Shown in pieces: positions 1 to 33,467 of a stretch of DNA of 64,000 nt; within the stretch, counting starts at the first letter, position 1; each line of letters opens with the position of its first letter. Source of the DNA: Candidatus Iainarchaeum sp. (GTDB taxonomy: Archaea; Iainarchaeota; Iainarchaeia; Iainarchaeales; VGJJ01); the NCBI GenBank assembly GCA_043803765.1, contig JAZDJQ010000018.1, positions 1-64,000 of the forward strand, given 5' to 3'. A program made the position numbers and the translations under genes. The notes under the pieces are model-generated. The model worked only from the letters and a program-made list of their open reading frames with translations. It searched no databases and was not told the origin of the DNA.

Positions 1-126
1 ATGAGTTCGTACTTTCGTGCGAAATGGTGCAGACTTTCGTCCGTTGTTTTGTGTTGAAGCATTTCATAGTGCATGTGTCATCCCGTATCCTATAAAGGAA
101 TACGGGGGCTCTTGCCCCAACCGCTT

Positions 127-140
127 ATGCCCCGAGCGGG
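127..140 (+). repeat. Cassette-boundary motif copy 1 (ATGCCCCGAGCGGG)
   Basis: Identical to 8014-8027 and near-identical to 5883-5896 and 11142-11154; intergenic, preceded by GC hairpins. Confidence 0.75.
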
Positions 141-230
141 AATAGAAGATAGCGGTAAACTGCCTTTTGTAAGGAACAATATGCCTTAGTAGGTAGAAGT
201 AATTAAAAGTATCCTTGTCCTTTTCGATTA

Positions 231-878
231 ATGCCTGTCCGCGTCTCTATCCGTCGGCATTCCCATCGGCCCAAAGAATCGGTTGGAAAAGAAGTTGGCA
301 TAACACGCTGGGGAAAATTTGCGGCCGCATTAAGAGGGCTATCTCTTCGGTCGAAAGGGACTCAACCCAAGATTTACAGTTCTCCTTACCGACGAACCCG
401 GGAAACGGGGCAGATTATTACCAAAGCGAGCGGAACCGGGTATCGTTTTCGAGAGAGAAAAGAATTGGGATTTGACTTACTGCGCTCGCCGGAACACCGC
501 GAAGCAGCACGCCAATACCAGATACACGGAGAAAAGGTCTTCTTAGAAAAATGGTTAACCAACCAGGTTGATTCGCGATTATTCTTAACCCCTCGCGAGG
601 TGGCCACACGTTTAGCAAAGGCAATGAGAAAAGCACAGAAAGGAAGCACAAAACAGGAACGAGTGGGCAGGACTGAAACAATCGATTTGGAAGGCATTTC
701 TCACCTTCCCCATATAATGGCCCTCTTTTATGAGCTGAGTAGAAAGCGGTATTCCCCCAATGACCTGCTAAAATTTAATCAGGCCTTTCAAATCGAATTT
801 GGTCGGCAAATAATTCTTTCCTACAAAGGAAAAAAATACGATGTCACAGAGCGATTTAACGAATTAGTAGGATTGTAG
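231..878 (+). CDS. Histidine phosphatase superfamily-like protein
   Basis: RRHS (RHG-like) near the N-terminus, IYSSPYRRTRET motif, later ISH motif. Confidence 0.65.
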   Translation: MPVRVSIRRHSHRPKESVGKEVGITRWGKFAAALRGLSLRSKGTQPKIYSSPYRRTRETGQIITKASGTGYRFRERKELGFDLLRSPEHREAARQYQIHGEKVFLEKWLTNQVDSRLFLTPREVATRLAKAMRKAQKGSTKQERVGRTETIDLEGISHLPHIMALFYELSRKRYSPNDLLKFNQAFQIEFGRQIILSYKGKKYDVTERFNELVGL

Positions 879-879
879 A

Positions 880-2322
880 CTACAACACTTTTCGAACGAT
901 TCCTTTGGTAGCATCCACTTCAATTATATCACCATCCTTAAAGGAGACAGTGGCACTTTCCGTCCCGACGACACAAGGTATGCGGAACTCCCTACTCACA
1001 ATAGCGGCGTGGGAGGTGATCCCGCCAATATCGGTTACTACGGCTCCTGCTATTCTCATCGCTTCTACAAAATCGGGTGTCGTGAGCCGGGCAACCAATA
1101 TGTCCCCTTTTTCGACCTTCCCCAGCTGACTTCGATCTTTCACGATTTTAGCTTTTCCCTTGGCAAACCCCGGCGAAGCAGGGTATCCTTTCAGTTCAGA
1201 TGAATCGTTTATGTTGGATTTAACATGCTGTGGCTCCATGCTATCTCCAAGAAATAGTCTCGTTTTTCCATCTTCCGTAACCAGGGCATATTTTTCCAGA
1301 CGCGACTGCAGTTCTTCTTCTGAAACTTTTTCTGCCTTTTCAAGAAGGTTCTCAATCTCGGAAGGCAAATAATATATCAACGATTCGTAGGAAATCTCAT
1401 AACGACGAGCAATTTCCATTAGCAACAATGAAAAATAATGAGCGCCCTCATTCAGCCACTCCAGCCGTTGATTTCGAAAAAAGATTAATTTTCGCATCAA
1501 TTCCAAGTCACCCTTGAAATTGCTATCACTTATTTTTTCCAACATTAATCGGTACTCTTCAAGAGAACGAGCATTATGAGCTTCTATTTCTTCGAGTTCT
1601 TTTCCAGGGTCGCCGTCACTCAACATTTTCAATTCGTCCACCAGTGTTTCAATCATATAGTCGTTTCCCAAAAGGAGTGTTTTACGAATCCACACATATG
1701 ATTGTAAATAGGATTCGACCTCATCAAAAAAAGAAGAGTTGCGAAGCGCGTTTTCGGAGTATTCCATCATTTCATCCTTAGCCTTTCTGGCAAGTTTTAG
1801 AAGGTCTTTCCGTTGTTTAAGAGTAGCCGTTTCCCCCTCAAAAACAGAAATAGTCTTCATTACTTCATCAAATCCACCCAAAGAGGCGAATTTCGTCCCA
1901 TATTTTGCATTAAGGACATCGACCAAGGCAAACTCAGAGGCAGCCGGGACCCCAATTAGTCCAACCGCTCGTTCATACAAATCATAATGGTCTCGAAACA
2001 TCCTGAGGAGGTCCTCGCGAGACAATTCGGGGATGCTCTTACTACCTCTAATTTTACCAAAATCAATCAGTTTTCTTGAAACTTCCCGAATAACCTCAAA
2101 AAAATGCGGAATTAAGCGCCGGTAATCCGACTTTATCAGTTCCTGAAAAGCAGCATACTCTTCCGCAACCCCACAAATATCATTGTCCACGTTCTTGCGA
2201 TTTTTAAAATCAAAATCAATCCCAAGCGTGTCCTTGAAGTGTCGTAGACCATTCTGACAAGCGAATTCGGAAAGAAGTTCTGTCTTAAAACTAACCACTA
2301 CAAACCAATTCTTCGACATCAA
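880..2322 (-). CDS. Protein with PEP-utilising enzyme mobile (phospho-His swivel) domain and a large helical N-terminal region; no ATP-binding domain
   Basis: C-terminal GDILVARLTTPD...GGITSHAAIVSREFRIPCVVG; 4-bp overlap with the upstream gene. Confidence 0.85.
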   Translation of the reverse strand: MMSKNWFVVVSFKTELLSEFACQNGLRHFKDTLGIDFDFKNRKNVDNDICGVAEEYAAFQELIKSDYRRLIPHFFEVIREVSRKLIDFGKIRGSKSIPELSREDLLRMFRDHYDLYERAVGLIGVPAASEFALVDVLNAKYGTKFASLGGFDEVMKTISVFEGETATLKQRKDLLKLARKAKDEMMEYSENALRNSSFFDEVESYLQSYVWIRKTLLLGNDYMIETLVDELKMLSDGDPGKELEEIEAHNARSLEEYRLMLEKISDSNFKGDLELMRKLIFFRNQRLEWLNEGAHYFSLLLMEIARRYEISYESLIYYLPSEIENLLEKAEKVSEEELQSRLEKYALVTEDGKTRLFLGDSMEPQHVKSNINDSSELKGYPASPGFAKGKAKIVKDRSQLGKVEKGDILVARLTTPDFVEAMRIAGAVVTDIGGITSHAAIVSREFRIPCVVGTESATVSFKDGDIIEVDATKGIVRKVL

Positions 2323-5300
2323 GACCCCCCTTCAAGAATACGAACCAATCCAGAAGTAGCGTCTACCTCGACTTCATCTCCATCATTAAGTGTGGCCGTC
2401 CCCGATTTCGTTCCCACGATACAGGGTTTTTTCATCTCACGCGCCACAATGGCTGCATGGCACATCATTCCACCTTCATCCGTCACAAAAGCAGCTGCCT
2501 TCTTCATTTCCTGAAGGAAATCAGGCATTGTCATCGGCGAGACAAGGATCTGCCCTTCTTGAATTTTTCCAAAATCATTATGTCCCATCACACGACAAAC
2601 AATTCCCCGCACTTTTCCGGGATGAGCAGTCTCTCCTTTTACTTCAGGCCCTGAAACGGCCTCAATTTGCTCCAACTGGATAGAATATTTTTCTTCAATC
2701 TCTTCTCGTGAAGCACCCACAAGAAGATCAGAATCCACCTGGTAGTATCCCGCATCCCGCAAAGCCAATTCTTCCTTTGATGGAGTGACTCCTTTACGAA
2801 TCTCCTCCAATGTGAACATCGAAGAAAGCTCACCAAGTTCAGGATAAATTTTTTTCAATGATTTTCGAATCACTACATCAGTTCCGGCTGAAAGCTTGTC
2901 CGTAAGGACACGGATTTTCTTAATGTTTGAATTATCCGCGCCCAATTCTTCAGGAGTGAGCCGATACAGCCACCACATTGCTTCTACCCAAGAATAGACT
3001 GAAATAAATGAATCAATAAACTTCTTCAATTCAGGCAAATCCAACGTTTGCTCTTCTTCATAAATCGGCCGGATATATGAAATGCCCTCCAATACCTTCT
3101 TCTCAACTTTTGTGAGAAATGAGGCATCTTTCTTTGTCCGCTGAATCAACTGATTATTCATCCACCCTAATGCATTAGGATTAAAATACACATGAACCGT
3201 TCCATCAATACGCTCCGCCACCATATGCGGTTTATGCGGAGAAGTATCAAGATACCACGGTTTATTCGGAGACGATTCGCAAGTCAGCGCTAATTGAATG
3301 GTGGATAATGAAAAATCACGCGAAAAAACACGCTCATAAGGTTTTACCTTTTCCTTGGCAATACGAATAACTCCATTATCTGCATCCACTTCAACTACCA
3401 TTTCATTTTTCAAAAGTTGAGTCGCGACTTTTGTGCCAATTATGCATGGTTTTTTCATTTCTCTGGCAACAACAGCGGCGTGACATGTGATTCCACCCTC
3501 ATCTGTGATAAAGGCAGCAGCTTTTTGCATCACGGGAGCCATGTCAGGAGTAGTCATTGTTGTAACTATGATAGCTCCTTCCTTCACTTTTTGAAAATCA
3601 GATTTTGATTGGATTAGGACAACTTTTCCCACTATTTTTCCTTTATAGGCAGTGGTTCCTTTTAGCTCATCTAAATTTAATCGTTCCTTTTCGAGGTGTT
3701 CCTCTTCGAGTTCAATCATTTTTTTTGGATTAGTTTCAAAAATAACCTTATCGGGCTCAACCGTGATAATAACAAATCCTTTTTCACGTAATTCAATTTC
3801 ATTGTTTGACAAGATTACATTACCAAGAAGCTCATCTGGTCGATAAGCAAGAATTTCCTTCCAAGATAATCTCTTTCGTTTGGCGATTTCCTCAATTAAG
3901 GGTCGAACGTTGGCGAATGCTAAACTCAAATAATCGGTTCGATAGGTTCGATAATAAACCAACTCTTTTGCAATAGAAACGAGATTTGAAAAAACCTTAT
4001 CAGCCGATAACTTTCTTAACAATGCTTCGGAATTTCGAATACTTTCACGCTCAAACTTATCCAATTCTCTGAGTTTTGCCCCACAGTCTGTTTGACATAA
4101 ATCCTTCAAGCGTTCAAAAAATTGTGCCTCTGTCCAAGGGTCATCGATTCCACCGCGCGTATTCATCCAACCAAACTCATCTAAATGAGAACGAATTTTT
4201 TGACTAAAATTATGAGGCAATTTTTCAACAGTAGTTACCTCAACTTTCTTTTTTTGCAGTTCAGAAGCAATTAAAAGTACATTCCTTTGTTCCAACGCAG
4301 CAAAATTCTTCTTAGTTGGAAACGTAAGAATGGAGAGTTCTTCATCTAAATCATTAGAGCCTTTCAATCGTTCACGGATTGCCATCTCTACTGGGCCTTG
4401 CAACCCCCACCCTGCTAACGCGATGGAAAATAACTCGTATTTCTTAACGAACTCACGAAATGTGTCCATTAACTTATCATTTGAGAAAGATGAAAAATTA
4501 GTCACTTTCATTTTTTCAGAAAACAATTTCAGTTCTTCTCCTATAGAATAAATGGTATCGAATACATTCAATACTGAGCCTTGTTTGGTCATTTCCTTAT
4601 CAAATAAACGCTGCCCCAAATCATGGATTTCCTTCCCAAAACACCATTTATCAGTAAAAACGCCAGTAGTTAGATAAAAGTCATTTAGCTCCATTAGTTG
4701 TTCAAAACTTTTAGGCCTTGATAGCCCGGACACAAACATATCTGAAATCAAAATACCATAACGGCGTGTAACAACCGCCTTCATCTTTCCTGACTTCACT
4801 GCAGAAGAAAATTCTTTCAAAGTCGTAATCGGCCTTGATTGCGTAATGTAAAAGATCCCTTTTTCCAAAGCCCATTCCACATCAACAGGAAATCCATAAT
4901 GCGCTTCAATTTTCAAAACGAGTTTTCCTAATTCCTGAATTTGAGTATCATCAAGTTTCTGCAAGGAACCCTTTTCAGAATCGATTTCCTTCCATTCATT
5001 ACCCCCATTTTCCAAACGAAAAATACCCCTCTTCTGCTCGCTCACATTCTTATTCAAAAAACCAAAAGGTTTCTTCTCCAACACATACGAGTCCGGGGTA
5101 ATCTGTCCGGAAACAATGGCCTCACCCAAGCCATAACCTGCTTCGATAATGAGTTGATTATAGTCTTGTGTTACAGGGTGCACGGAAAACGCAATCCCAG
5201 ACACCTCACTCTCCACCATCTTCTGCACCACTACGGCCACTGAAATGTGTTCGCCGTGCAACCCTTTTTCGAATCGGTAAAAAATAGCTCTGGGAGTGAA

Positions 5301-5756
5301 CAAAGAAGCCCAGCACCGTTTCACATTTTCCAACAATTTTTCTTTCGTCGTATTGAGAAACGTGTCCAATTGTCCCGCCCACGCGGCAGACGAAGAATCC
5401 TCGGCGGTTGCAGAAGAACGCACTGCTACAAAAGGAGTGTTCAATTTATTGAAATTAGAAAGAATTTCTTTTTGCAAATCAATAGACACTTTTTGGGATA
5501 AAATCAGTGCCTGGATTTCTTCCGAAGCCCTTTCCACAGACTCCATTTCATGATGATTCACCTTATGCAAAATGGAATCAATATCCGCCTTGATATTCGT
5601 CTCCGAAATGAACCGATCGAACGCGGAAGAAAGAATCACAAACCCAGGCGGCACAGGAATTTTGGCTTGGATCATTTCTCCAAGAGAGGCACCTTTTCCG
5701 CCGGCCACGGCCACATCCTCCTTGGATAAATCAGTAAAAGGCTGAATAAAGGCCAT
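2319..5756 (-). CDS. Dikinase-like protein: PPDK/PEP-synthase N-terminal ATP-grasp domain plus two phospho-His swivel domains (rifampicin-phosphotransferase-like architecture)
   Basis: GGKGASLGEM, VAVRSSATAEDS, QSRPITT; GGITCHAAVVARE and GGMMCHAAIVARE; no C-terminal PEP/pyruvate TIM barrel; likely start MAFIQPF at 5756. Confidence 0.85.
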   Translation of the reverse strand: MAFIQPFTDLSKEDVAVAGGKGASLGEMIQAKIPVPPGFVILSSAFDRFISETNIKADIDSILHKVNHHEMESVERASEEIQALILSQKVSIDLQKEILSNFNKLNTPFVAVRSSATAEDSSSAAWAGQLDTFLNTTKEKLLENVKRCWASLFTPRAIFYRFEKGLHGEHISVAVVVQKMVESEVSGIAFSVHPVTQDYNQLIIEAGYGLGEAIVSGQITPDSYVLEKKPFGFLNKNVSEQKRGIFRLENGGNEWKEIDSEKGSLQKLDDTQIQELGKLVLKIEAHYGFPVDVEWALEKGIFYITQSRPITTLKEFSSAVKSGKMKAVVTRRYGILISDMFVSGLSRPKSFEQLMELNDFYLTTGVFTDKWCFGKEIHDLGQRLFDKEMTKQGSVLNVFDTIYSIGEELKLFSEKMKVTNFSSFSNDKLMDTFREFVKKYELFSIALAGWGLQGPVEMAIRERLKGSNDLDEELSILTFPTKKNFAALEQRNVLLIASELQKKKVEVTTVEKLPHNFSQKIRSHLDEFGWMNTRGGIDDPWTEAQFFERLKDLCQTDCGAKLRELDKFERESIRNSEALLRKLSADKVFSNLVSIAKELVYYRTYRTDYLSLAFANVRPLIEEIAKRKRLSWKEILAYRPDELLGNVILSNNEIELREKGFVIITVEPDKVIFETNPKKMIELEEEHLEKERLNLDELKGTTAYKGKIVGKVVLIQSKSDFQKVKEGAIIVTTMTTPDMAPVMQKAAAFITDEGGITCHAAVVAREMKKPCIIGTKVATQLLKNEMVVEVDADNGVIRIAKEKVKPYERVFSRDFSLSTIQLALTCESSPNKPWYLDTSPHKPHMVAERIDGTVHVYFNPNALGWMNNQLIQRTKKDASFLTKVEKKVLEGISYIRPIYEEEQTLDLPELKKFIDSFISVYSWVEAMWWLYRLTPEELGADNSNIKKIRVLTDKLSAGTDVVIRKSLKKIYPELGELSSMFTLEEIRKGVTPSKEELALRDAGYYQVDSDLLVGASREEIEEKYSIQLEQIEAVSGPEVKGETAHPGKVRGIVCRVMGHNDFGKIQEGQILVSPMTMPDFLQEMKKAAAFVTDEGGMMCHAAIVAREMKKPCIVGTKSGTATLNDGDEVEVDATSGLVRILEGGS

Positions 5757-5882
5757 AATAAGAAATATAACTGGCGAAAAGGTTAATACCGAATCCCAAA
5801 AATAGGCCATTTGGTGGGTGATTTTTTAAAAATTGGAAGCTATACTTTGGAAAAAGGAAGGGGGCATACTGCCCAGGAATAA

Positions 5883-5896
5883 ATGCCCCGCGCGGG
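5883..5896 (+). repeat. Cassette-boundary motif copy 2 (ATGCCCCGCGCGGG)
   Basis: 13/14 match; GGGGCAT inverted copy 15 nt upstream (5861-5867). Confidence 0.65.
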
Positions 5897-5951
5897 AAGC
5901 CGGCTATTTTTCCAGTAAAACAAGATTATTTTATAAATAGTTCACCTTATA

Positions 5952-6833
5952 ATGGAATATATGGAATTATCCAAGACAGAGTTATTGATTTTGGAGCAGA
6001 TCGCCCAGGGAAACCAAATGGTCCCCGGCTTGGCGAAAGCCCTGCAAAAGAGTGAAAAACAAATCTATGTTGGAATCAAGCGATTGGTAAACAAGGATTT
6101 CGTTACCCTACATCGTGGCAGGGTAAAAGGAACGCACGACCTCCCAACTACGCTACTTCTCCAACTACTATCCGAAACCCCCTATGTATCCCCCGTGCTA
6201 TCCGATTCGGGAATCCCTATCCTTCAATTATTAGAAACCCCACAAACCGCACAGCAAATTATCCAAAAAACAGGATATCGAAAAAGTATCGTATATCAAA
6301 AACTGAAGAAAGGAATCGGCCACAATATGATAGTGGAAAAGGAAAAAACCTATCAATGGAATCCCAAGCTGTGGCTCCTTCTACAATCGTTTTTGCAAGA
6401 AATCACTAAACATGAGCAAACCATCGACGCGCGTGTTCCTCCATCCTCCGTCATTTATTTCAAGAATAAGGACGAAATCGTTTTTTCGACTAAGGAAGAA
6501 TTAGATGCATCCCTTACTGCCTTCTCTGCGTATAAGGATTTTGGCATTAAGCTCTACAATATCACCTATTTCTATTACCTGCCCAAAAAGAAATTAACCG
6601 CCGAAGAAGTATTCCGTCATTCCCTTTACGTCGCCGAGAAAACAAGCGAAATTCGTCATATCATTTTCGTGGCCTTATTTTACCTGAAACATCGGAAAAA
6701 GCTCTCCAAAATACAGCATCCCATCCTCGAAAAGCTGAACCGAACTTTCTATGGGGAGAAATTCGGCGGTTTCCCCTCCCTGCAAGAGATAAAAGACCGT
6801 GCGGCTGTATATGACCTCGAGGTGCGACCATGA
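5952..6833 (+). CDS. Winged-HTH protein, putative antitoxin/regulator partner of the downstream nucleotidyltransferase
   Basis: Two wHTH-like segments (LAKALQKSEKQIYVGIKRL; IIQKTGYRKSIVYQKL); ATGA overlap with the NTase gene. Confidence 0.65.
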   Translation: MEYMELSKTELLILEQIAQGNQMVPGLAKALQKSEKQIYVGIKRLVNKDFVTLHRGRVKGTHDLPTTLLLQLLSETPYVSPVLSDSGIPILQLLETPQTAQQIIQKTGYRKSIVYQKLKKGIGHNMIVEKEKTYQWNPKLWLLLQSFLQEITKHEQTIDARVPPSSVIYFKNKDEIVFSTKEELDASLTAFSAYKDFGIKLYNITYFYYLPKKKLTAEEVFRHSLYVAEKTSEIRHIIFVALFYLKHRKKLSKIQHPILEKLNRTFYGEKFGGFPSLQEIKDRAAVYDLEVRP

Positions 6834-7486
6834 TTACCAGCATGCAACCCGTCCAAGAACTGTTTCAGGAATTATCTCCGAGACTTTCAACGAGCGTCCG
6901 CCTGTATCTCATTGGTGGAATCGTCCTCCTCCAACAAGGACTCAAGGGAGCCACGAAAGACATTGACATTGTGGTCGAAACCAAAGAAGAATTTGAAGCA
7001 TTCCATGACGCCCTCGAACAGGCCAAATTTTCACCTAAAATTCCACGAAAGGGCGCCGAACACATGAATTTGAACCAAGTGTTTGTGCGCGGAGAATTGA
7101 ACATTGACCTTTTCCAGAAAGAGGTTTGCGGAAAATTCGCTTTATCCAAAACCATGATGCAACGTGCCAGACCGGCTTTCGACTACCCGAATCTCGGTAT
7201 ATTTTTCTGCTCTAACGAAGACATTTTTCTATTTAAGAACATGACCGAGCGCGATGGGGATATTGATGATTGTCTCGCATTGGCTAATATGACATTAAAC
7301 TATGATAGTATTCTCGAAGAACTCCAACACCAAATCAAACAAAGCAAACAAGACATTTGGGTCACATGGGTGGGCGAGCGAATGGACATCTTAGAGGAAA
7401 AAGGGGCAATAATTCCTATTATGGACCGGCTCAACCAACTCCGAGAAGCATACATGGAAAAATGGATGAAAGAACGGGAGAAATAG
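6830..7486 (+). CDS. Nucleotidyltransferase (DUF6036-like, Pol-beta fold)
   Basis: LYLIGG...ATKDIDIV motif, later IDLF and K...R..D..D helix. Confidence 0.75.
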   Translation: MITSMQPVQELFQELSPRLSTSVRLYLIGGIVLLQQGLKGATKDIDIVVETKEEFEAFHDALEQAKFSPKIPRKGAEHMNLNQVFVRGELNIDLFQKEVCGKFALSKTMMQRARPAFDYPNLGIFFCSNEDIFLFKNMTERDGDIDDCLALANMTLNYDSILEELQHQIKQSKQDIWVTWVGERMDILEEKGAIIPIMDRLNQLREAYMEKWMKEREK

Positions 7487-7489
7487 AAA

Positions 7490-7933
7490 ATGGATTACAG
7501 AAAGAACAGTTCAGCAATCGTCATCTACAAAGGCAAGATTCTGATAACAAAAAAGCCAAATAGAGATTCTTGGCAGTTCCCCCAGGGTGGAATTAAAGAA
7601 AATGAAACGGGCGAGGAAGCCATTCTTCGTGAATTAAAAGAAGAACTGAATATCACAAAGGTAGAAATCGTCGGAAAAAGCAAGATTGTTCATCAATACG
7701 ACTGGTCGCCAGAAAAACAGAAACAGACAGGACTCCAGGGAATTCGCCAAAGAATATACTATATTCGACTGCTGGATGACCCTATGAAAATGAAAATCGA
7801 TCCAACCGAATTGGAAAAGTTCCAATGGATCGAGTCTGAAAATATCCACCCTTTTTTCAAATTCCAGAACCTACTTGATCTGCTGAATAATATCCAAGAG
7901 GAAATGAGCGAAATGGTCAGGAGATACCAATGA
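7490..7933 (+). CDS. NUDIX hydrolase (RppH-like)
   Basis: WQFPQGGIKENETGEEAILRELKEELNI Nudix box. Confidence 0.9.
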   Translation: MDYRKNSSAIVIYKGKILITKKPNRDSWQFPQGGIKENETGEEAILRELKEELNITKVEIVGKSKIVHQYDWSPEKQKQTGLQGIRQRIYYIRLLDDPMKMKIDPTELEKFQWIESENIHPFFKFQNLLDLLNNIQEEMSEMVRRYQ

Positions 7934-8013
7934 GCCCCCTTCCATCCGTTTTTTAATCGCTGTCGTCCGTATACAATCCGGATTCCCGGACATTATTCGG
8001 ACTGGCAGATATC

Positions 8014-8027
8014 ATGCCCCGAGCGGG
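8014..8027 (+). repeat. Cassette-boundary motif copy 3 (ATGCCCCGAGCGGG)
   Basis: Exact copy; preceded by a long imperfect hairpin at ~7960-8008. Confidence 0.75.
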
Positions 8028-8131
8028 CGTTAATTCCTGAAACAAGAACCCGGCTTTGTATCCTTTATGGTTACTTTAGAAGTGAGTGGACTTAATAATT
8101 TTGATGGTGTTCTTTGCTAAAAATATTGTGT

Positions 8132-9244
8132 TTAGTGGTTTTGAATTTTCTTTAATAATGCTATTGCTTCTTCTCGAATGTTTTTGTCGCGGTCGTTTTG
8201 GAGTTCCATTAGAACCCCGATGACTTGAATAAAATATCCCCCATACTCTTTTTTGGCTATTTTGGAAATGAATGTCATTGCCTTCAATACATCTGACTTT
8301 TTCTTGGAATCAAGATAGCTTTCCACTATTTTGAAAGCCCGTCGAAGCAGGGGTTCACTGCCATGATCACGATACATATTGTCTAAATGCTCGATTTCTA
8401 AATCCTTGGAAAAAAGAGATAGTTCCTCAACAGAAAAAAATGTTTTTCGAAGATCCTCCAAAACGGTTTCAAATTCTGGCAAATCAAAGACCATTCGCGC
8501 AAGGGAATCCACCCAATATCGTTTGGCCTCTTTGATTCGGTTATCGGAAAACATTAATTCTGGGGTGAATTCAATCTTATTTAGTTCGCATTTTTCTTCA
8601 ACCAATTTTATTAGTTCGGCAGGGGTTTTCCTAGCCACTTCGTTAAATTGCTGGTCACCAGTCAGCATCCACACGTCATAATAGTCTCTACTTTTACCGC
8701 GTTGTAATATTGCCCTGATTTTTTCAGCCATCACTTCGTATATTCCATAGCAATTAATCGAAAAGGGAGCAATATCAGGGTATAGAGATTCCTTTAGTGG
8801 CAATTTATCTCGGGCATAAATGATAGCTTCTTGCAGCGATACTTCCAATTTTATTTCACCTTGGTGGGCGAGTGGCCCCAAATAACTAATTCGGACTGAA
8901 AGGTATCCTTTATTTTCCATTCTTCCCGAGTTTTTGACGTGGAGTTGAGGCCCTCCATCAGACAAAATTGTTTCAAACGATCCTTCCAGTTCGAGAATTA
9001 ATTCGTTAAGTGATAATGTATGTTTTTTGTTCAGAGAAAAATCTAAATCTTCGGAGAGCCGATAATTTTCAGCATACATTTTGCTGATACAGGTGCCCCC
9101 TTTGAAAACGAGGGTTTCGGAAAGGGCAGGATTCATTGAAATGGCCTTGAGCACCCAAGTCAGAGCATAATCTTTCTCCATAAATGCAAGGTCTTTCACC
9201 TTTCGCTTGGAAGCGATGCGCTGCAATTCTGTTTTACTAATCAT
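8132..9244 (-). CDS. AbiEii/AbiGii-family nucleotidyltransferase toxin (type IV TA) with C-terminal helical extension
   Basis: EKDY, FKGGT, RLSEDLDF, EKIRA..QRGKSRDYYD motifs; start MISKTEL overlaps the antitoxin stop (ATGA). Confidence 0.9.
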   Translation of the reverse strand: MISKTELQRIASKRKVKDLAFMEKDYALTWVLKAISMNPALSETLVFKGGTCISKMYAENYRLSEDLDFSLNKKHTLSLNELILELEGSFETILSDGGPQLHVKNSGRMENKGYLSVRISYLGPLAHQGEIKLEVSLQEAIIYARDKLPLKESLYPDIAPFSINCYGIYEVMAEKIRAILQRGKSRDYYDVWMLTGDQQFNEVARKTPAELIKLVEEKCELNKIEFTPELMFSDNRIKEAKRYWVDSLARMVFDLPEFETVLEDLRKTFFSVEELSLFSKDLEIEHLDNMYRDHGSEPLLRRAFKIVESYLDSKKKSDVLKAMTFISKIAKKEYGGYFIQVIGVLMELQNDRDKNIREEAIALLKKIQNH

Positions 9245-10047
9245 TCTAAATCCCCCCGCGAGATGTCCGTATTTATTTGGATATTCCATCGCGTATTATA
9301 TTTCCCAGTATTCCCTGCCGTTGGATAAAGCGGAGCATATCCCGTCGTTAGCCGTCCACGCAAGTCCTCAATTATCTCTTTTGAAATGGGAACGCCCATT
9401 TCTTCCAGAAGAAACCCCATGCGCTTATAGATAGCGCCATTACCCATTCTTTCTGCATAGGTAATAACCTTACCCCAATCCACTTTTGCATAGACGATGG
9501 CTTTTTTTACTTCGTCAATTCCTCCGCAGTATTCAGGGTGGTCTAATGCATCAACTAATGTTTTTTCCGGATCAGAGACAACTATAGTGTGGCCTCGAAT
9601 GTTCGTCTCCTTGTATCCAAAAAACTTTTTCTTGGAGAGCGTGACAAACTCATACTTCGTTCCATGGATTATTTTTGGAGTGGTTATTTTGGTGGTAACA
9701 ACGGAGATAGTATTGGGGACCTGTTCGGTCCAACTATAATAGTGAAGCATGGACAAATATCCCAGATAGTATGGTCGTGCCAATTTGGATGCGATATAAA
9801 ATGAGTCTTCGGACCACTCGGGTTTACTCCCGGCAGCTAATTCGAGAATAAGATAAAGCCCTCTACTCAATCGTTCGACCCACTTTTTTCGGGAAAGAGT
9901 GCTAGCCATTTTTCGCGCCAGAGGCCTCGAACTCGTTTTTTTGGATAACTCATCAATTGAGAAAATAACTCTCCCCTCGGATGCTAAATCTGAAAGAATC
10001 CGTGATTCGGCCGAACCTAATCCTCTTCGTAGAGTTTCTTTAGTCAT
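9241..10047 (-). CDS. AbiEi-family antitoxin/transcriptional regulator (type IV TA)
   Basis: wHTH ...RLSRGLY, YLGYLSMLHYY, SDPEKTLVD motifs; directly upstream of AbiEii. Confidence 0.9.
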   Translation of the reverse strand: MTKETLRRGLGSAESRILSDLASEGRVIFSIDELSKKTSSRPLARKMASTLSRKKWVERLSRGLYLILELAAGSKPEWSEDSFYIASKLARPYYLGYLSMLHYYSWTEQVPNTISVVTTKITTPKIIHGTKYEFVTLSKKKFFGYKETNIRGHTIVVSDPEKTLVDALDHPEYCGGIDEVKKAIVYAKVDWGKVITYAERMGNGAIYKRMGFLLEEMGVPISKEIIEDLRGRLTTGYAPLYPTAGNTGKYNTRWNIQINTDISRGDLE

Positions 10048-10077
10048 AATACCCTAATAAGTGTTCTTCCACTTTCA

Positions 10078-10109
10078 AACTATATTTATTCAAAGGGATT
10101 AATATAGTT
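10078..10109. promoter_or_regulatory. Inverted repeat, putative AbiEi operator
   Basis: AACTATATT-N14-AATATAGTT, 30 nt upstream of the abiEi start; a further half-site at 10151-10159. Confidence 0.45.
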
Positions 10110-10147
10110 ATGTGTATTAAAACACCATATTTGGTTATTTTCAATAA

Positions 10148-10291
10148 ATAAACTATATTTCTGGATATTTTGATTTTCTATCCCAACCCCCTGCCACCTT
10201 TAACCTCAACGAACTGGTAAAGCAAGGGAAAAATAGAAAAGTCAGCAAATACCGAGGGGCGCACCATACGCCCGCCCCTGAGACAAAATAA
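10148..10291 (+). pseudogene. Start-less relic of a winged-HTH C-terminus
   Basis: Frame reads ...SQPPATFNLNELVKQGKNRKVSKYRGAHH*, a wHTH recognition-helix/wing pattern; no start codon. Confidence 0.35.
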
Positions 10292-10488
10292 CTATAAGCC
10301 ACTATAGGTTATACTAATTTATAGTAAACTTATAGAAAAAAAAACCGACAAAAGCCTAGATGAGAGTTTGCATACAAGTCCTTGATTGGATTTGAACCCG
10401 CATTTTAGGGCAATTATCTCTTACACTCGGATAAAAATCAGTGGATGATGCCTATACTATTTATGTATTTTGTTTAATCCTCCTATTG

Positions 10489-11121
10489 ATGTCCAAAGAA
10501 AAGAAAGGTGGATGGCAGGCTAATGTGGAATTCTTTGATAATTATGTCATTAAAACGCCCAAAACCGATTATGAAATAAGGAAAAAAATCTCAAAATATT
10601 TGAAACCCAAGGGAAAATTACACACTTTGGACAAAAGAGTAGAGGAGATGAAAAAAGGTTGGAAAGAAGGAATTCGAATACTAAACAAAAAGAAGATTCC
10701 TACAAGAATGCTGGGGTATATCGAATTTCTTGAGCATGGAAAAATTCGACAGAAAAAAGTGATTACACTTGAAGATTCTTGGAATGAAGCGGCGGATAAC
10801 GGAAACGTTAAAGAAATGAAAAAAATAGTGAACAAGGCTATTAATTTTATTATAGAATTGTGGAAATATGGAATTCATGAAAAAACGGGTAAAATAGGTT
10901 ATGAATTTGGATTAATGAAAAACAAAATCATTCTAATTGACTTTGGAGAAATAAGCGAAAATAAAAAAATACCTCAAAAACAAATTTTGAAAAAATACTG
11001 GAAAAAGCCACTTGAAAGACACTCAAGGAAAGAAGTACTCAATTATTTCAACAAAATGGCTGACAAAAAACTAACCATTCAAACGCTCAACAAAAACTGG
11101 AACAAAAAAAGAGAAAAATAA
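10489..11121 (+). CDS. Hypothetical Lys-rich protein with degenerate protein-kinase-like motifs
   Basis: GGWQANV, YVIK, GIHEK, IILIDFGE; ATG at 10489. Confidence 0.55.
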   Translation: MSKEKKGGWQANVEFFDNYVIKTPKTDYEIRKKISKYLKPKGKLHTLDKRVEEMKKGWKEGIRILNKKKIPTRMLGYIEFLEHGKIRQKKVITLEDSWNEAADNGNVKEMKKIVNKAINFIIELWKYGIHEKTGKIGYEFGLMKNKIILIDFGEISENKKIPQKQILKKYWKKPLERHSRKEVLNYFNKMADKKLTIQTLNKNWNKKREK

Positions 11122-11141
11122 CCCTCATTAGATATTAGGGT

Positions 11142-11157
11142 ATGCCCGAGCGGGCAC
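11142..11157. repeat. Cassette-boundary motif copy 4 (palindromic ATGCCCGAGCGGGCAC) abutting the pheT stop
   Basis: TGCCCG-AG-CGGGCA; ends just before the pheT stop codon at 11159. Confidence 0.6.
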
Positions 11158-11158
11158 T

Positions 11159-12814
11159 TCATCCCTCCGAAAGATAACACTCAAACACTACCAATGGGAA
11201 AGGAATTCCCAATCGTGCTAGCACCCGAGGATGTGTTTCTCCCAAAAAACCATTAAATTTCCCCATTTTCACATGCGCGGTTCTCCCATCAATAAAACCA
11301 CTCAGTTTTGTTTCAGTGAAAACAGGTTTCTCTCCAAGAAAGCGAGATAACGCATCCACATAGGATTTCATTTCAGTGAATGATGCAGCAGCATGACCCA
11401 AAATAAGACATAGCTTGTAATGCGTAATCGTTCCCGTGTCCGTGTTCTCATGAATATCCACTATTTGGTCTAACTCAAAAAGTTTGAATGGCTGCGTGGC
11501 ACTTCGATTGCTCAATAATGCACGCAGTGTTTCAGGATACAACATATTACGCACCATGGTGAGACTTTGTTCTTTTACTACTCCTAATCGAACATGAGGA
11601 GAGTGTTCCCGTTCAAATGTAGTAAAATGATGCTCGTGCGAAGTAAGATGCCACGACATGACTTCATGAAAGCCTAATCCTGTGATACAACTGCGAATAT
11701 CATCATTAAGCTGTGTTTGAGGAAGAACCCCTCCCTGCGTGTATAACTCCACAGGAATAGGCTGGAGATTATCAAAACCATACGCGCGCGCCACATCATC
11801 CACAATATCTAATGGATGCAACACATCGGCGCGAAACTGGGGAAATGAAACAACTAATTGGGAAGAATTTTGCTTCGTAATCGTATATCCCATTCGTGTT
11901 AAGAGAGAGGCAGTCTGTTCACTCGTAAACACTGTTCCCAGCGTGCGATTCACTAAACTTATTTCAAGAGGAAGAGAATCCATTTTCAATTCAGGAGTAA
12001 TACGAGGCGTTGTTTCATTTGGAAAATGAACCTGTACCGAGTAAATATCCCCTTTCATATCCGCAAAGACGTGCGCCAAGATATCCGTGAGAATAGAGAG
12101 AGTAGGCCAATAATGACCGGAAACCTCAACAAACAAATCCTGATCATCTATGGAAACGGCCCCTACGTGTTGAGAATTGATAATGGGGGGCATGGAAAGA
12201 ACTTCTTTTTTGGCATCGCGAAATACGGGAAAAATAGGCATGTTGTGAAGAAGAGGAGCATATTTCTTTCCAGTAGGATGCTCATGCAGAATAGCCAATC
12301 CTGAAAGTGGTTTTTCACTACCAAGAGGAGGAAAAACAATCTTCTCAGGGTGTTCTCCTGTAAACGTAATAGGCCACTTGATCTTGTTGAGCGGATAGAT
12401 TCCAATCGCTCCTTTCTTTCGCTGCCGTGCAAACGTTTCATGGAGTTTTTCCTGTACCCAAATCAACTCATCTAACTTTTCCTGCGTAAGATGAATGTTT
12501 CGCACCACAAATGCAGCAGTATAAGGACGCACAGGTAATACTGACGAGTCGACATGAATGTGATAATTCCCTTCTTTCACATGCAACGAGGAAAAACCCT
12601 GCGTGTATCCCAAATACGCATTCAACACGCGTGCAATTCCAGCAGGAGAAATCATGTCGGGTCGTTCTGCGGTAATATCAATTTTCAATGCATTCGGGTC
12701 ATCTGATTCCAAATCAAAACCTAATCGGCTTAATGAATCCCGCAACTGATTAATCGTGAGGGGCTTGCGCATATACCCATTAATCTGTTCCAGTGTCGTA
12801 TCAACATTCACCAT
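11159..12814 (-). CDS. pheT: Phenylalanyl-tRNA synthetase beta subunit (archaeal type)
   Basis: ERPDMIS, SMPPIINS, RADVLHPLDIVDDVARAYG, GETHP. Confidence 0.95.
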   Translation of the reverse strand: MVNVDTTLEQINGYMRKPLTINQLRDSLSRLGFDLESDDPNALKIDITAERPDMISPAGIARVLNAYLGYTQGFSSLHVKEGNYHIHVDSSVLPVRPYTAAFVVRNIHLTQEKLDELIWVQEKLHETFARQRKKGAIGIYPLNKIKWPITFTGEHPEKIVFPPLGSEKPLSGLAILHEHPTGKKYAPLLHNMPIFPVFRDAKKEVLSMPPIINSQHVGAVSIDDQDLFVEVSGHYWPTLSILTDILAHVFADMKGDIYSVQVHFPNETTPRITPELKMDSLPLEISLVNRTLGTVFTSEQTASLLTRMGYTITKQNSSQLVVSFPQFRADVLHPLDIVDDVARAYGFDNLQPIPVELYTQGGVLPQTQLNDDIRSCITGLGFHEVMSWHLTSHEHHFTTFEREHSPHVRLGVVKEQSLTMVRNMLYPETLRALLSNRSATQPFKLFELDQIVDIHENTDTGTITHYKLCLILGHAAASFTEMKSYVDALSRFLGEKPVFTETKLSGFIDGRTAHVKMGKFNGFLGETHPRVLARLGIPFPLVVFECYLSEG

Positions 12815-32073: not shown

Positions 32074-33240
32074 TCAACTGCTTTTTTCTTTTGCGTAGAA
32101 TGCAGTTAAGTATTTCCGCAGATTCGCAAGAAATAAGGATTCATCTTCTTTCCGAATACTGCCTCCGGCGGATGGAATGTGTCCACCGGCATTAGCATCG
32201 GATAATCCTGCAATGGATTTTTCCAATAAGTCATTCACCGGAATTCTGAAATCCTGCCGACGCGCGGACAGCGTTACCCGTGTTCCATTCGCCACGTCCT
32301 GAAGCATAATAACCGTGTAATGAGGATACTTTCGCGATAGCTTGTTGATAAGAAGACTCTTAATAGCATGTTTGGGTCGCACGCTGGAAAGAATCAATTC
32401 AATTTTTTCTTCTTTTTCCAATTCCCTTTCCGCACGGTCCATCCATTCATTAATTTCATCCTCTATAACACTTACTAATGAACGAAAGCCCGAGTTCAAT
32501 AATTCATTAGGATGAGAAGCATTCGTTATGATACCCAACAATTCTGAAAGCTGATACGATGAGAGAATTTGGGTACAATAAATAATACTACTCATTATAC
32601 CAAACGGAGCAGCAAACGGGTCGTCCTTCACAGGATTCAAACCCCATTTTTTAGCCGAAGCATCCACAAAACTTTTCCAACTAGCATACGCCGAATCGGA
32701 TGTAATTCCAATACAAGGAATCCAATCCTTGTCACGCATATCCACGACCATGGAAAACAACGTATGAGCAAGAATAGCCGTAGGAAAACTACTGGATTCC
32801 GTTTCCCATACAATTTGGGGCTTTAATACAATAAAACGAGGAGAAGAATACTCGTTGTATACCTTATGATGGTCAATCACCAAAATGGGACAAACCGATT
32901 CCATTTCCTGCAAAAAAGAAGTAGGCTTTTGCTCAATAGAACGATCCACACTAATCAATTTAGTCAAACCCGCCCCTTTTATTCTACGCACTAATGCATC
33001 ATCGATAAATGAAGAAGAATGACCAAAGGGTTGCACCCACTCAGGAGCGTTCCCACGAAGACGAATAACTCCAATTATTACGCTTGCCGCAGCCGAAAGA
33101 CCGTCCCCATCATCATCGTAAAGAATACCCACTTTGTCTTCCGGAGTAATATTTCTAAGAAAATTCACCGCTTCTTCAAGACGAGACCTGTCCTGCAAGG
33201 GCAATCTACCCACCCAGGAAGGAATACCATCTGGTGCCAT
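32074..33240 (-). CDS. DHH/DHHA1 phosphoesterase (RecJ-like)
   Basis: DDDGDG, IDHH, SARR, GGHIPSAG. Confidence 0.85.
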   Translation of the reverse strand: MAPDGIPSWVGRLPLQDRSRLEEAVNFLRNITPEDKVGILYDDDGDGLSAAASVIIGVIRLRGNAPEWVQPFGHSSSFIDDALVRRIKGAGLTKLISVDRSIEQKPTSFLQEMESVCPILVIDHHKVYNEYSSPRFIVLKPQIVWETESSSFPTAILAHTLFSMVVDMRDKDWIPCIGITSDSAYASWKSFVDASAKKWGLNPVKDDPFAAPFGIMSSIIYCTQILSSYQLSELLGIITNASHPNELLNSGFRSLVSVIEDEINEWMDRAERELEKEEKIELILSSVRPKHAIKSLLINKLSRKYPHYTVIMLQDVANGTRVTLSARRQDFRIPVNDLLEKSIAGLSDANAGGHIPSAGGSIRKEDESLFLANLRKYLTAFYAKEKSS

Positions 33241-33293
33241 GTATTATTCTCCTATGCCCAATGCTTTTAAGGAACATTTCCCAAAAATGAAGA

Positions 33294-33467
33294 ATGGAAT
33301 CCTTCTCTCATACTAATTCAGCGGGAAGAACCTATTTTCTCCATCAAAATGGACGATTGTTTTATTTCTCGTCAAAAAAACAAGGGTGTCTTTCTGACAT
33401 TCCAGCAGGATATATCATCGTTGAAAGTGAAAAAACCAGCCTCCCGCTACTCAAAAAGATGGAGTGA
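33294..33467 (+). CDS. 57-aa small hypothetical protein (below ORF-track cutoff)
   Basis: MESFSHTNSAGRTYFLH...YFS...IPAGY.IVESEKTSLPLLKK; fills the gap and ends 9 nt before the next ATG. Confidence 0.7.
   Translation: MESFSHTNSAGRTYFLHQNGRLFYFSSKKQGCLSDIPAGYIIVESEKTSLPLLKKME

Follow-up and report, generated by a model that had tools for sequence, protein, structure and literature searches.

A tandem array of integrase-less islets bounded by tRNA-Glu-derived repeats beside pheT in a small archaeal genome

Positions 1-11157 of the window, by which we mean the whole 64,000-nucleotide stretch of an Iainarchaeum contig (C18) analysed here, form a tandem array in which an integrase-bearing element that runs off the contig edge is followed by four integrase-less islets (E1-E4). 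Judged by its sequence, the 14-bp motif that recurs in this array is the tail of a tRNA-Glu gene, left as a scar at each insertion of a mobile element. The structure is a genomic island of a well-known kind at an unusual spot in a small archaeal genome, and its best explanation, to which we assign a probability of about 0.8, is that elements inserting at tRNA 3' ends accumulated in a tandem stack, which was then mobilized in cis to a site beside pheT. An earlier note on this DNA had proposed a site-specific accretion hotspot, a proposal that is borne out by recurring unit boundaries in other genomes and by a tyrosine integrase of matching specificity. The features are given below, with the strand where one applies.

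1..74, minus: 5' end of a tyrosine integrase gene, first 24 codons (MHYEMLQHKTTDESLHHFARKYEL); the gene leaves the window and the contig leftward
75..126: P arm (also Y arm), between integrase start and core; two hairpins, including GGGGC-TCTT-GCCCC
127..140, plus: core c1, exact 14-mer of the tRNA-Glu(CUC) 3' end
141..215: P' arm of E1, about 75 nt; holds GAAGATAGCGGTAAACTGCC, whose inverted repeat is in P arms
231-878, plus: E1 His_Phos_1 protein (Pfam, NCBIfam); the E1 cargo spans 231..5810
880-2322, minus: E1 PEP-utilizer protein (Pfam PEP-utilizers, NCBIfam)
2319-5810, minus: E1 dikinase-like protein, 1163 aa (Pfam PPDK_N, NCBIfam)
5861..5882: short P-arm-like stretch of E1, GGGGCATACTGCC..., which in a by-eye comparison resembles GGGGGCACTTTACTGCC of the tRNA-Met P arm
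5883..5896, plus: core c2, ATGCCCCGCGCGGG, one mismatch
5897..7933, plus: islet E2, left arm AAGCCGG..., then wHTH, NTase and NUDIX genes
5952-6833, plus: E2 wHTH (Pfam HTH protein)
6830-7486, plus: E2 DUF6036 nucleotidyltransferase (Pfam)
7490-7933, plus: E2 NUDIX (Pfam; PADLOC candidate PDC-S07)
7934..8013: right arm of E2 (arm A), a conserved 80-nt structured arm, fold -26.3 kcal/mol
8014..8027, plus: core c3, exact 14-mer
8028..10047: islet E3, left arm L at 8028-8131, then AbiEii and AbiEi
8132-9289, minus: E3 AbiEii (Pfam; PADLOC 2.3e-69)
9241-10047, minus: E3 AbiEi (Pfam; PADLOC 4.4e-80)
10374..10401: possible decayed E3/E4 boundary, T-arm-like remnant ATTTGAACCCGC, not preceded by a recognisable core
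10441..11121, plus: islet E4, one 226-aa ORF, 31.4% G+C
11142..11156, plus: degenerate core c5, ATGCCCGAGCGGGCA, right-hand junction with chromosomal DNA
11159..12814, minus: pheT (Pfam), chromosomal flank outside the array

The motif copies described in the earlier note were recovered: ATGCCCCGAGCGGG occurs without mismatch on the plus strand at 127-140 and 8014-8027, and the fourth copy, at 11142, is one C shorter, contains the palindrome TGCCCG-AG-CGGGCA and lies 2 nt from the pheT stop codon (11159-11161). As also claimed, all four copies are intergenic and stand at borders between gene modules, GGGGCTC (105-111) and GGGGCAT (5861-5867) each precede ATGCCCC by exactly 15 nt, and stem-loops are predicted on the left of every copy (ViennaRNA, 69-nt stretches; -27.0, -13.8, -26.3 and -11.7 kcal/mol in order). 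Three matches with up to two mismatches are present in the window versus a mean of 0.17 after shuffling, and none of 100 shuffles reached three. A genome-wide search, which the note had proposed, returned five matches at up to one mismatch and none for the reversed control; the two copies outside the window are each 127 nt from the end of a contig (C11 and C12). Of the five copies in this 1.02-Mb genome, three cluster within a stretch of 8 kb and the other two coincide exactly with branch points of the assembly. The motif is present in 14 of 16 same-genus genomes, while the reversed motif gave three matches among 41 genomes.

The note suspected a tRNA 3' end, and with it an att core, in the motif's reverse complement; this proved correct, as that sequence equals the 3' end of tRNA-Glu(CUC). 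It reads CCCGC+TCGGGGC+A+T of tRNA-Glu(ctc), that is, the T-stem 3' strand, the acceptor 3' strand, the discriminator and the +1 base, or the final 13 nt of the tRNA plus one base. Among the 45 matches to this core family (up to one mismatch), 13, in relatives, run into a tRNA-Glu called by ARAGORN (11 ctc, 2 ttc) and one more runs into a truncated tRNA remnant. Identity of the att core with the 3' part of a tRNA gene, a hallmark of tRNA-targeting elements, is found here.

The recombinase was expected by the earlier note to lie outside the window, which holds for most of the gene; its first 24 codons, however, sit at 74-1 on the minus strand. This stub is 79% identical over 24 aa (tblastn, E 4.5e-5) to a 473-aa integrase of a related genome (G007:C68). 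That protein matches PF00589 at 1e-22, is encoded 52 nt downstream of tRNA-Glu(ctc) and can be aligned with XerA (PDB 4a8e, E 1e-13) along LRVSE, HxxRHS and the region of the catalytic Y (R..HxxR..Y). The gene at the left edge of the window is accordingly predicted to encode a tyrosine-type integrase of about 450 aa, the window itself holding its 24 N-terminal codons, with the catalytic domain and the rest of the element outside the assembly. Among the 20 loci returned by the search, 17 were checked for tRNAs, and in 12 of these a tRNA adjoins the integrase gene; the tRNAs comprise Glu ctc, Glu ttc, Asn, Asp, Arg, Met (twice), Gly, Ile, Cys and Ser. The position of the tRNA just 5' on the integrase strand was read from coordinates for two loci, G007:C68 and contig C14 of the present genome (G000), where a 429-aa integrase starts 61 nt after tRNA-Met. 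At both, an intact integrase gene adjoins the att site, unlike the split SSV type, and sequence features would assign these integrases of about 430-475 aa to the tyrosine, lambda/pNOB8 type. Of three scans of collections bearing on excision or re-integration, two gave no match and the third unrelated bacterial matches only.

The sequences beside the cores are conserved as well. Positions 1-126 are 80% identical to the stretch adjoining the intact tRNA-Glu in G007:C68, and the P arm, in which a TATA-like box (91-96) may serve as a promoter, aligns with the P arms adjoining tRNA-Met and tRNA-Ile in this genome. The P' arm of E1 recurs, at 83-95% identity, after the tRNA-Met cores C14:7237 and C14:16055 and the tRNA-Ile core C18:127321 (minus). 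Arm A is 69-85% identical to stretches immediately left of cores in G005, G017, G006 and G002:C2, and in G006 and G017 it directly adjoins intact tRNA-Glu; counting against the preferred explanation, it is also found beside degenerate cores only, at G000:C9:24100 and G002:C4:50948. Cores in G004:C33 and G001:C10 are likewise followed by the L arm, and in G006:C49 a core with a left arm like that of E2 precedes a homologous wHTH and NTase pair. The dikinase-like protein of E1 is present in 6 of 17 genus genomes. Regarding the cargo, the module labels of the earlier note stood for the dikinase operon, wHTH-NTase-NUDIX and AbiE (Pfam, PADLOC), while the ORF at 10441-11121, which it had called kinase-like, found no family match in Pfam (above cut-off), NCBIfam or PADLOC. 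This islet has a G+C content of 31.4% versus a genome mean of 42.7% (sd 2.3). The remnant at 10374..10401 matches the tRNA-Glu T arm weakly, over 14 nt (E 0.28), and possibly marks the E3/E4 boundary. Together with at least eight islets in relatives, E1-E4 are core-bounded and contain neither a PF00589 match nor an integrase remnant in tblastn, although E4, which is counted among them, has no recognisable core at its left boundary. The islets adjoin an integrase-bearing element of the same specificity, the integrase start and P arm (1-126) abutting c1 and E1.

The location beside pheT is not a tRNA site. pheT was found in 17 of 17 genus genomes, the terminal gene of C11 (249 aa) has a homologue at the pheT locus in 16 of 16 relatives, and in the comparison of pheT-downstream loci that the note had suggested, core-like sequence at the pheT stop codon was seen in 0 of 16 relatives. 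By this synteny, the stack splits the spacer that normally separates pheT from this convergent gene, which pheT abuts in all 16 relatives; direct core repeats flank the insert between the two, and synteny breaks there. The note had been puzzled that pheT stands where an intact tRNA would be expected, which is true and is explained by the array occupying an ectopic, non-tRNA site. The terminus of C11 consists of a core and an arm (X) that ends both C11 and C12. In G004:C48, tRNA-Glu(ctc) stands between the Fic gene that here ends C12 and the DHS gene that here opens C14, which places the primary tRNA-Glu site of this genome in the assembly gap between these two contigs. A tRNA-Glu(CUC) gene, also sought on the suggestion of the note, is absent from the genome bin; its absence is due only to the repeat having interrupted the assembly and should not be counted as a true loss of this tRNA. 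The assembly contigs overlap by 141 nt, C11 and C12 sharing exactly 141 nt from the first base of the core and C18 starting 141 nt before the base following the core, which fits a two-copy repeat bounded by cores. The assembly graph further suggests that the X arm and the Y arm at the start of C18 are the two ends of one element, presumably the content of the missing repeat, and the contig ends may connect differently among strains.

Individual islets have been exchanged between species. Positions 10442-11155, spanning E4, share 94.6% nucleotide identity with G004:C33:10318-11033, and the similarity stops at the core on one side and begins at the ORF start rather than at a core on the other. 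The Fic islet is 91.7% identical to its G004 copy, again up to the core, whereas PheT and DHS of the same genome pair share 62% and 79% amino-acid identity. The earlier note had offered breakpoints in relatives as a test of cassette boundaries at the motif, and similarity and synteny breaks do coincide with cores. Comparable structures exist elsewhere in this genome, namely four tRNA-Met cores (C14:4824, 7237, 16055 and 33518) with an integrase at 32167-33456, and a mini-element of about 680 bp at tRNA-Ile, so the arrangement is a family trait rather than something special to pheT. The P' arm of about 75 nt, whose 20-mer is inverted in P arms, is common to three tRNA cores (Glu, Met and Ile), which hints at easy retargeting.

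In the explanation that we prefer, the motif is the att core of a family of archaeal integrative elements whose targets are tRNA gene 3' ends, each insertion restoring the tRNA, leaving a core copy at the far end of the element and keeping the integrase gene intact next to the tRNA. Most likely, elements first accumulated at tRNA-Glu; a composite circle of the integrase element and islets would then have been excised by recombination between two outer cores and have re-entered the chromosome beside pheT, at a secondary site of weak similarity, giving a perfect junction on the C11 side and a hybrid junction, one C short, at 11142. That the composite was excised and transferred as one is suggested by the ectopic position of the whole stack, and the system may be active at present. 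Since arrays with no nearby tRNA also occur at G002:C2 and G001:C10, a rare secondary-site insertion may be too simple, and core-by-core chromosomal rearrangement is an alternative route to such arrays.

A rather doubtful alternative is that the stack was built in place and is inert, successive whole elements having entered a pseudo-att site at pheT and lost their integrases and most genes, so that the islets are dead scars that were never mobile as units and are not mobilizable. Tandem structures usually arise, according to the available passages of reviews (PMC5704250), as integrated elements decay and only remnants devoid of an integrase are left, and the mismatch at 5883, the base lost from c5 and the decayed E3/E4 boundary agree with decay. 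However, no integrase remnant was found by tblastn (E<0.1) in 41 kb from nine arrays except at 3-74 of the window, the small islets (0.7-5.7 kb) have retained a conserved arm at either end, and the Fic and E4 islets are 92-95% identical across species versus 62-79% for housekeeping proteins, with similarity ending at cores; besides, a single insertion of a composite is more parsimonious than four separate ones at the same weak secondary site. Binning or assembly error, in which the contig would be chimeric at repeats or C11, C12 and C18 would derive from different strains, is suggested by a 19-contig bin whose contig breaks coincide with the motif, but is very improbable, given that three copies (5883, 8014 and 11142) lie in the interior of a 159.8-kb contig and that independent genomes of the genus have like structures. 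It is hardly likely that the motif serves as a palindrome for regulation or termination, or as a REP-like repeat, and has nothing to do with recombination: its intergenic copies do lie beside predicted hairpins and that at 11142 is palindromic, but it is identical to the tRNA-Glu 3' end, its five genomic copies are clustered or at branch points, synteny breakpoints coincide with it, and an Rfam scan of positions 1-12000 found nothing.

It is also unlikely that the core with its arms of about 75 nt is a portable site, an archaeal counterpart of the integron attC, through which very small integrase-less cassettes, mostly of toxin-antitoxin and defence genes, are captured one by one and shuffled in trans by tRNA-targeting integrases, switched from one tRNA core to another and passed between species. 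Six genomes hold at least 12 islets (0.7-5.7 kb) devoid of an integrase, many of them with one to three genes (Fic, DHH, RelE/RHH, PIN+TIR, AbiE), arm types A, X, L and P' recur beside unrelated cargo, and the P' arm shared by three tRNA cores and the exchange of single cassettes point the same way. Arm sharing could nevertheless come from homologous recombination between tandem elements, the cassettes are multi-gene and in both orientations, neither a circular cassette nor an empty site was seen, and integron features are absent. If true, integrases of resident elements would act in trans on a pool of Fic, AbiE, RelE/RHH, PIN+TIR and nucleotide-modifying enzymes, and whole stacks could move to non-tRNA sites.

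Accretion followed by mobilization in cis, by contrast, accounts for the puzzling repeat as the tRNA-Glu core of a stack of elements. A reduced archaeal genome of about 1 Mb keeps an active-looking platform for gene acquisition, a diversified integrase family targets at least 10 tRNAs across the genus, and tiny integrase-less islet stacks carry mostly toxin-antitoxin and defence genes. Three aspects go beyond the routine case: a whole stack at a non-tRNA site is the footprint expected of accretion and subsequent cis-mobilization, for which the literature searched yielded no description in archaea; single islets are near-identical between species; and one arm occurs on three tRNA cores.

Among known systems, the integron-like array raised in the earlier note did not hold, there being no IntI and no attC, and islets being multi-gene and in both orientations. 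The homologous integrase (G007:C68 type) scores far below integron-integrase cut-offs (TIGR02249, 51.6 bits against 265; NF011946, 31.1 against 435) and lies beside a tRNA rather than attI; the separators are the tRNA-derived 14-mer, with no Rfam match in positions 1-12000, rather than imperfect inverted repeats ending in GTTRRRY; and E1-E3 hold two to three genes in an array using both strands rather than single promoterless ORFs in one orientation. As far as integrons, including archaeal ones, are described in passages of bioRxiv 10.1101/2022.02.06.479319 (PMC9668308), the likeness lies in small accessory units split by a repeated recombination site, toxin-antitoxin-rich cargo and exchange of units between species, and the difference in the IntI-type integrase, attI, attC hairpins and common promoter, none of which is seen here.

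Other parallels are found among integrative elements. The tRNA-Met array of this genome has an integrase of the same family (33% identical to the Glu-type homologue), the same P' arm and a tandem layout that includes members devoid of an integrase, but sits at its intact tRNA, whereas the window array combines a tRNA-Glu core with a non-tRNA location, and the assembly lacks its tRNA. Type II (lambda/pNOB8-paradigm) archaeal integrases, in the available passages of a 2021 review (PMC8371274) in which the word DPANN does not occur, likewise leave their gene intact after integration and target tRNAs, with direct repeats on either side of the element, and tandem integration into a single locus is reported. 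The 'cryptic integrated elements' of Thaumarchaeota are defined, in the text available from PMC6563490, by the presence of an integrase, and their median size is 17 kb, unlike the integrase-less islets here, mostly of 1-2 kb. Tandem tRNA/tmRNA islands with accreted integrase-less cis-mobilizable elements (CIMEs), such as those related to ICESt1 in Streptococcus thermophilus and the ssrA islands of Dehalococcoides, are described in part in PMC3146451 and PMC5704250. On that account they differ from the present array, which has an archaeal host with a genome of about 1 Mb, islets of 0.7-5.7 kb, an ectopic intergenic site, no evident transfer machinery and a tyrosine integrase instead of the serine recombinase DsiB of Dehalococcoides. 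According to the same passages, they resemble it in direct repeats of the 3' end of a small-RNA gene, several in tandem, in a conserved extra sequence beside the repeat, in a patchy, strain-specific distribution and in an integration module that only some islands have, 15 ssrA islands of Dehalococcoides being devoid of one. Overall, the array matches tandem accretion with cis-mobilizable islets.

The stack of accessory genes beside pheT in the Candidatus Iainarchaeum sp. genome (G000; 1.02 Mb in 19 contigs, with an archaeal-type Phe-tRNA synthetase) is partitioned by a 14-bp core motif, ATGCCCCGAGCGGG, into integrase-less islets (E1-E4), with the following layout:

74-1, minus strand: start of an integrase gene
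75-126: Y arm, also called P arm
127-140, plus strand: core c1, exact
141-215: P' arm
Module 1, between cores: His-phosphatase, PEP-utilizer and dikinase-like genes
5883-5896, plus strand: core c2, one mismatch
Module 2, between cores: wHTH, DUF6036 nucleotidyltransferase and NUDIX genes
7934-8013: arm A
8014-8027, plus strand: core c3, exact
8028-8131: L arm
Module 3, after c3: AbiEii and AbiEi genes
Module 4, before c5: a 226-aa ORF (ORF226, 10441-11121)
11142-11156: core c5, ATGCCCGAGCGGGCA, one C shorter, 2 bases from the pheT stop

Three matches at up to two mismatches were found in the window, which covers the initial 64 kb of contig C18, versus 0.17 expected (100 shuffles, none with three). 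Motif search and gene annotation of the window confirmed that the copies are real and that all four are intergenic, each between functional modules. Two finer details of the earlier note were also borne out, namely GGGGC(A/T)(T/C) exactly 15 nt ahead of ATGCCCC at copies 1 and 2 and a stem-loop, predicted for all four copies, on the left of each; its overall reading of a cassette-accretion hotspot at the pheT 3′ end is largely right, and the feature is real.

In relatives, the motif continues directly into ATTTGAACCCGCG..., which read on the opposite strand is the tRNA-Glu(CUC) body, and the core is therefore tRNA-derived, comprising the 3′ strands of the T-stem and acceptor stem, the discriminator and one further base. 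Family-wide classification (45 matches at no more than one mismatch in 18 genomes) assigned 13 matches to tRNA-Glu genes that are intact according to ARAGORN (ctc in 11 and ttc in 2), one to a truncated tRNA remnant and approximately 20 to intergenic borders of accessory segments (two automatic calls were corrected by hand), while approximately 11, most of which have one mismatch, fall within long open frames and were taken as chance. The motif is present in 14 of 16 genomes of the same genus, and a reversed-motif control gave 3 matches in 41 genomes; a fuzzy search at three errors gave control counts of 0.5-5.4 per locus and was set aside as too noisy. Clusters of boundary copies in one orientation occur in G002:C2 (three), G005:C18 (three), G001:C10, G001:C20 and G017:C4 (two each). 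A genome-wide search of G000 for a tRNA ending in the motif found none, the nearest being tRNA-Glu(ttc) with two mismatches, and derivation from a tRNA present in this bin was dropped. The proposal of an att core taken from a tRNA 3′ end thus held for the tRNA-Glu(CUC) of relatives, but the intact tRNA expected at this locus is missing, the site beside pheT being ectopic. In G001:C20 (L038, 5587-5695), the 3′ end of the resident tRNA-Glu(ctc) is a variant, with GTGCCCCCGGCGGG as its reverse complement, and a canonical core copy lies 17 nt past it, so that the array core there differs from the present tRNA end. Separately, the motif or a one-mismatch variant occurs at G007:C55:1509, G016:C23:222 and G015:C1:776041 inside apparently one conserved protein-coding gene, whose flanks align mutually and are unrelated to tRNAs or islets.

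An integrase of matching architecture abuts the stack. In the relative G007, a tRNA-Glu(ctc) gene (C68, 2713-2787) is followed 52 nt on by a 473-aa ORF on the same strand, which matches PF00589 (1e-22) and aligns with the XerA catalytic region. Window positions 1-126 share 80% identity with the stretch from this tRNA to the integrase start, and the translation of 74-1, MHYEMLQHKTTDESLHHFARKYEL, matches the N-terminus of the G007 integrase, MHYEMLHKNDESLHHFARRYDL, indicating that an integrase gene begins in the window and runs off the contig. The recombinase had been placed outside the window, which is correct for most of the gene but not for its start. Among 20 homologous integrase loci returned for the genus, 17 were checked for tRNAs and 12 of them have a tRNA adjoining the integrase gene (Glu ctc, Glu ttc, Asn, Asp, Arg, Met twice, Gly, Ile, Cys and Ser were seen); at G007:C68 and G000:C14, the coordinates place the tRNA just 5′ of the integrase and in the same orientation. 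The integrase family is diversified, and G000 itself has a 429-aa paralogue adjoining tRNA-Met, another of 451 aa on C17 and a Xer-like protein. With four recombinases as tblastn queries against 41 kb from nine arrays, no integrase remnant was detected at E<0.1 except the stub at window 3-74, and an exact scan of metagenome contigs with window 1-43 gave no match.

The stack is an insertion. The final gene of contig C11, encoding 249 aa, stops 9 nt ahead of a core copy, and its homologue was found in the pheT locus of all 16 relatives, in most of them convergent with pheT and directly beyond its stop codon, where none of the 16 has a core-like sequence; window 1-11157 is thus peculiar to G000, which is the outcome of the comparison of pheT-downstream loci that had been suggested. 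Gene order places the primary tRNA-Glu site elsewhere: in G004:C48, tRNA-Glu(ctc) sits between a Fic gene and the deoxyhypusine synthase (DHS) gene, and in G000 contig C12 closes with the Fic orthologue, a core and the X arm, in this order, while C14 opens with DHS. No copy of this tRNA was found in the bin. Contigs of G000 overlap by 141 nt; C11 and C12 have in common exactly 141 nt from the first core base, and C18 starts exactly 141 nt before the base after c1. Most simply, a core-bordered repeat would be present twice, its left end formed by the X arm and its right end by the integrase and Y arm; one copy would lie at tRNA-Glu and the other would adjoin E1, and the assembler would have left the repeat unresolved. 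The left ends of C2, C7, C8 and C9 also have an identical sequence, present too in C12, C15 and C18, and the right ends of C2, C3, C5 and C15 have another in common, which recurs close to the ends of C4, C10 and C19; two or more multi-copy elements interrupt this assembly.

Single islets have moved between lineages. E4 (10442-11155) has 94.6% nucleotide identity to G004:C33:10318-11033, and the Fic islet at the C12 end 91.7% over 1142 nt to G004:C48, whereas PheT and DHS of G000 and G004 share 62% and 79% amino-acid identity, respectively. Similarity stops at the core for E4, and for the Fic islet it ends on the right exactly at the core and on the left 14 nt from a degenerate core. The Fic pair of G002 and G005 is 81% identical and other Fic islets 28-40%. 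E4 has a G+C content of 31.4% versus a genome mean of 42.7% (sd 2.3); in G004:C33 a core and then an L arm come after its homologue, a junction unlike that in G000, and G006:C49 has an E2-like wHTH and nucleotidyltransferase pair after a core with a similar left arm. Islet cargo in relatives includes Fic, DHH phosphoesterase, two D-Ala-D-Ala-ligase-like ATP-grasp enzymes, RelE/RHH, PIN+TIR, cupin and amidohydrolase genes.

No accepted match was obtained for ORF226 in Pfam, NCBIfam or PADLOC, and the kinase-like label given to it earlier found no support there; its ILIDFGE stretch may resemble a kinase DFG motif. The reading of ORF226 as an integrase fragment was rejected, since the Phage_int_SAM_4 match is weak (E 0.0026, below the cut-off) and the ORF stops before the core. 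The 393-nt spacer ahead of it (10048-10440) has no genes and no Rfam match, and contains a G+C-rich hairpin-like stretch, GAGGGGCGCACCATACGCCCGCCCCTGAG, at approximately 10254-10282 and a T-arm-like remnant at 10388-10401. The E2 NUDIX protein (7490-7933) has a match (E 5.6e-13) to PDC-S07, a candidate defence family of PADLOC, and the wHTH protein beside it has Csa3/CasR-like HTH matches. The 1163-aa dikinase-like protein (2319-5810) has a PPDK_N domain and two PEP-utilizer mobile domains; its family is patchy (6 of 17 genus genomes) and comes in groups of numerous paralogues or fragments, G007 having 13 matches and G005 having 9, of which some contain internal stops; further loci are at window 880-2322 and G000:C12:97544-99544.

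Arms are common to several elements. The P' arm (approximately 75 nt) has 83-95% identity to stretches after two tRNA-Met cores and the tRNA-Ile core of G000, and the 20-mer GAAGATAGCGGTAAACTGCC recurs inverted between tRNA-Met or tRNA-Ile and the next gene; inverted arm repeats therefore lie on both sides of each core, the arrangement expected for an attP-type site. The same layout recurs in G000: the tRNA-Met 3′ end is repeated at C14:4824, 7237 and 16055 in addition to its place in tRNA-Met itself (33518), and an integrase-less mini-element of approximately 680 bp adjoins tRNA-Ile(GAT) outside the window (C18:126562-127334, L099), whose two borders are the 3′ end of the tRNA and a duplicate of that end, and whose inverted 20-nt arm repeats are those of the tRNA-Met and tRNA-Glu elements. 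Across 81 genomes of the order, strong P' matches were confined to G000, with three weak matches elsewhere; the 20-nt arm pattern had no match in viral contigs and five in the genome contigs collection, all in unrelated bacteria and taken as chance. Arms A (69-85% identity to copies in four genomes), X (after the cores at the C11 and C12 ends; 72-77% to three others) and L (64-75% to two others) recur beside unrelated cargo. Arm A as the native tRNA-Glu flank was rejected as a general rule, being seen by eye at only 2 of 13 intact tRNA-Glu sites (G006 and G017), and interpreting it as an islet's right arm fits better. At G000:C9:24095-24180 and G002:C4:50940-51030, where no tRNA is close by, copies of it precede degenerate cores only (ATGCATGGAACGGG and ATGCCCCGAGCGAA); these copies may be relics of further ectopic insertions. 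An Rfam search of window 1-12000 (both strands, E up to 1) gave no match, so arm A and the other arms fit no described RNA family.

Taken as a mechanism, elements would accrete at tRNA-Glu, recombination between the outer cores would release a composite circle, and the circle would re-insert beside pheT at a weak secondary site, leaving a perfect core on the C11 side and, at 11142, the hybrid core that lacks one C. Alternatively, the islets may have been inserted stepwise in place and then decayed, or may have been captured individually in trans. There is also room for core-by-core chromosomal rearrangement, left by the arrays of G002:C2 and G001:C10; these have no nearby tRNA, and displacement from the tRNA is thus not unique to G000. 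Directly left of the G002:C2 array (L035:5376-7937) is an 853-aa RadA/Rad51 gene with an intein (Intein_splicing and LAGLIDADG_3 matches).

The closest described systems to this stack are tandem islands at tRNA or tmRNA genes with integrase-less, cis-mobilizable members. In Dehalococcoides, 20-bp ssrA repeats border tandem islands, 15 of which have no integration module (PMC3146451), and a scheme of accretion and cis-mobilizable elements (CIMEs) is set out in PMC5704250. Archaeal type II integrases and tandem integration have been reviewed (PMC8371274), the word DPANN being absent from that text, and thaumarchaeal cryptic integrated elements are defined by their integrases and have a median size of 17 kb (PMC6563490). 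Integrons, including the archaeal ones (10.1101/2022.02.06.479319), have an array logic in common with the stack, but none of their defining parts is found in it. What is noteworthy here is the ectopic site and the very small size of the islets, as well as the interspecies exchange of islets and the arms that different tRNA cores have in common.
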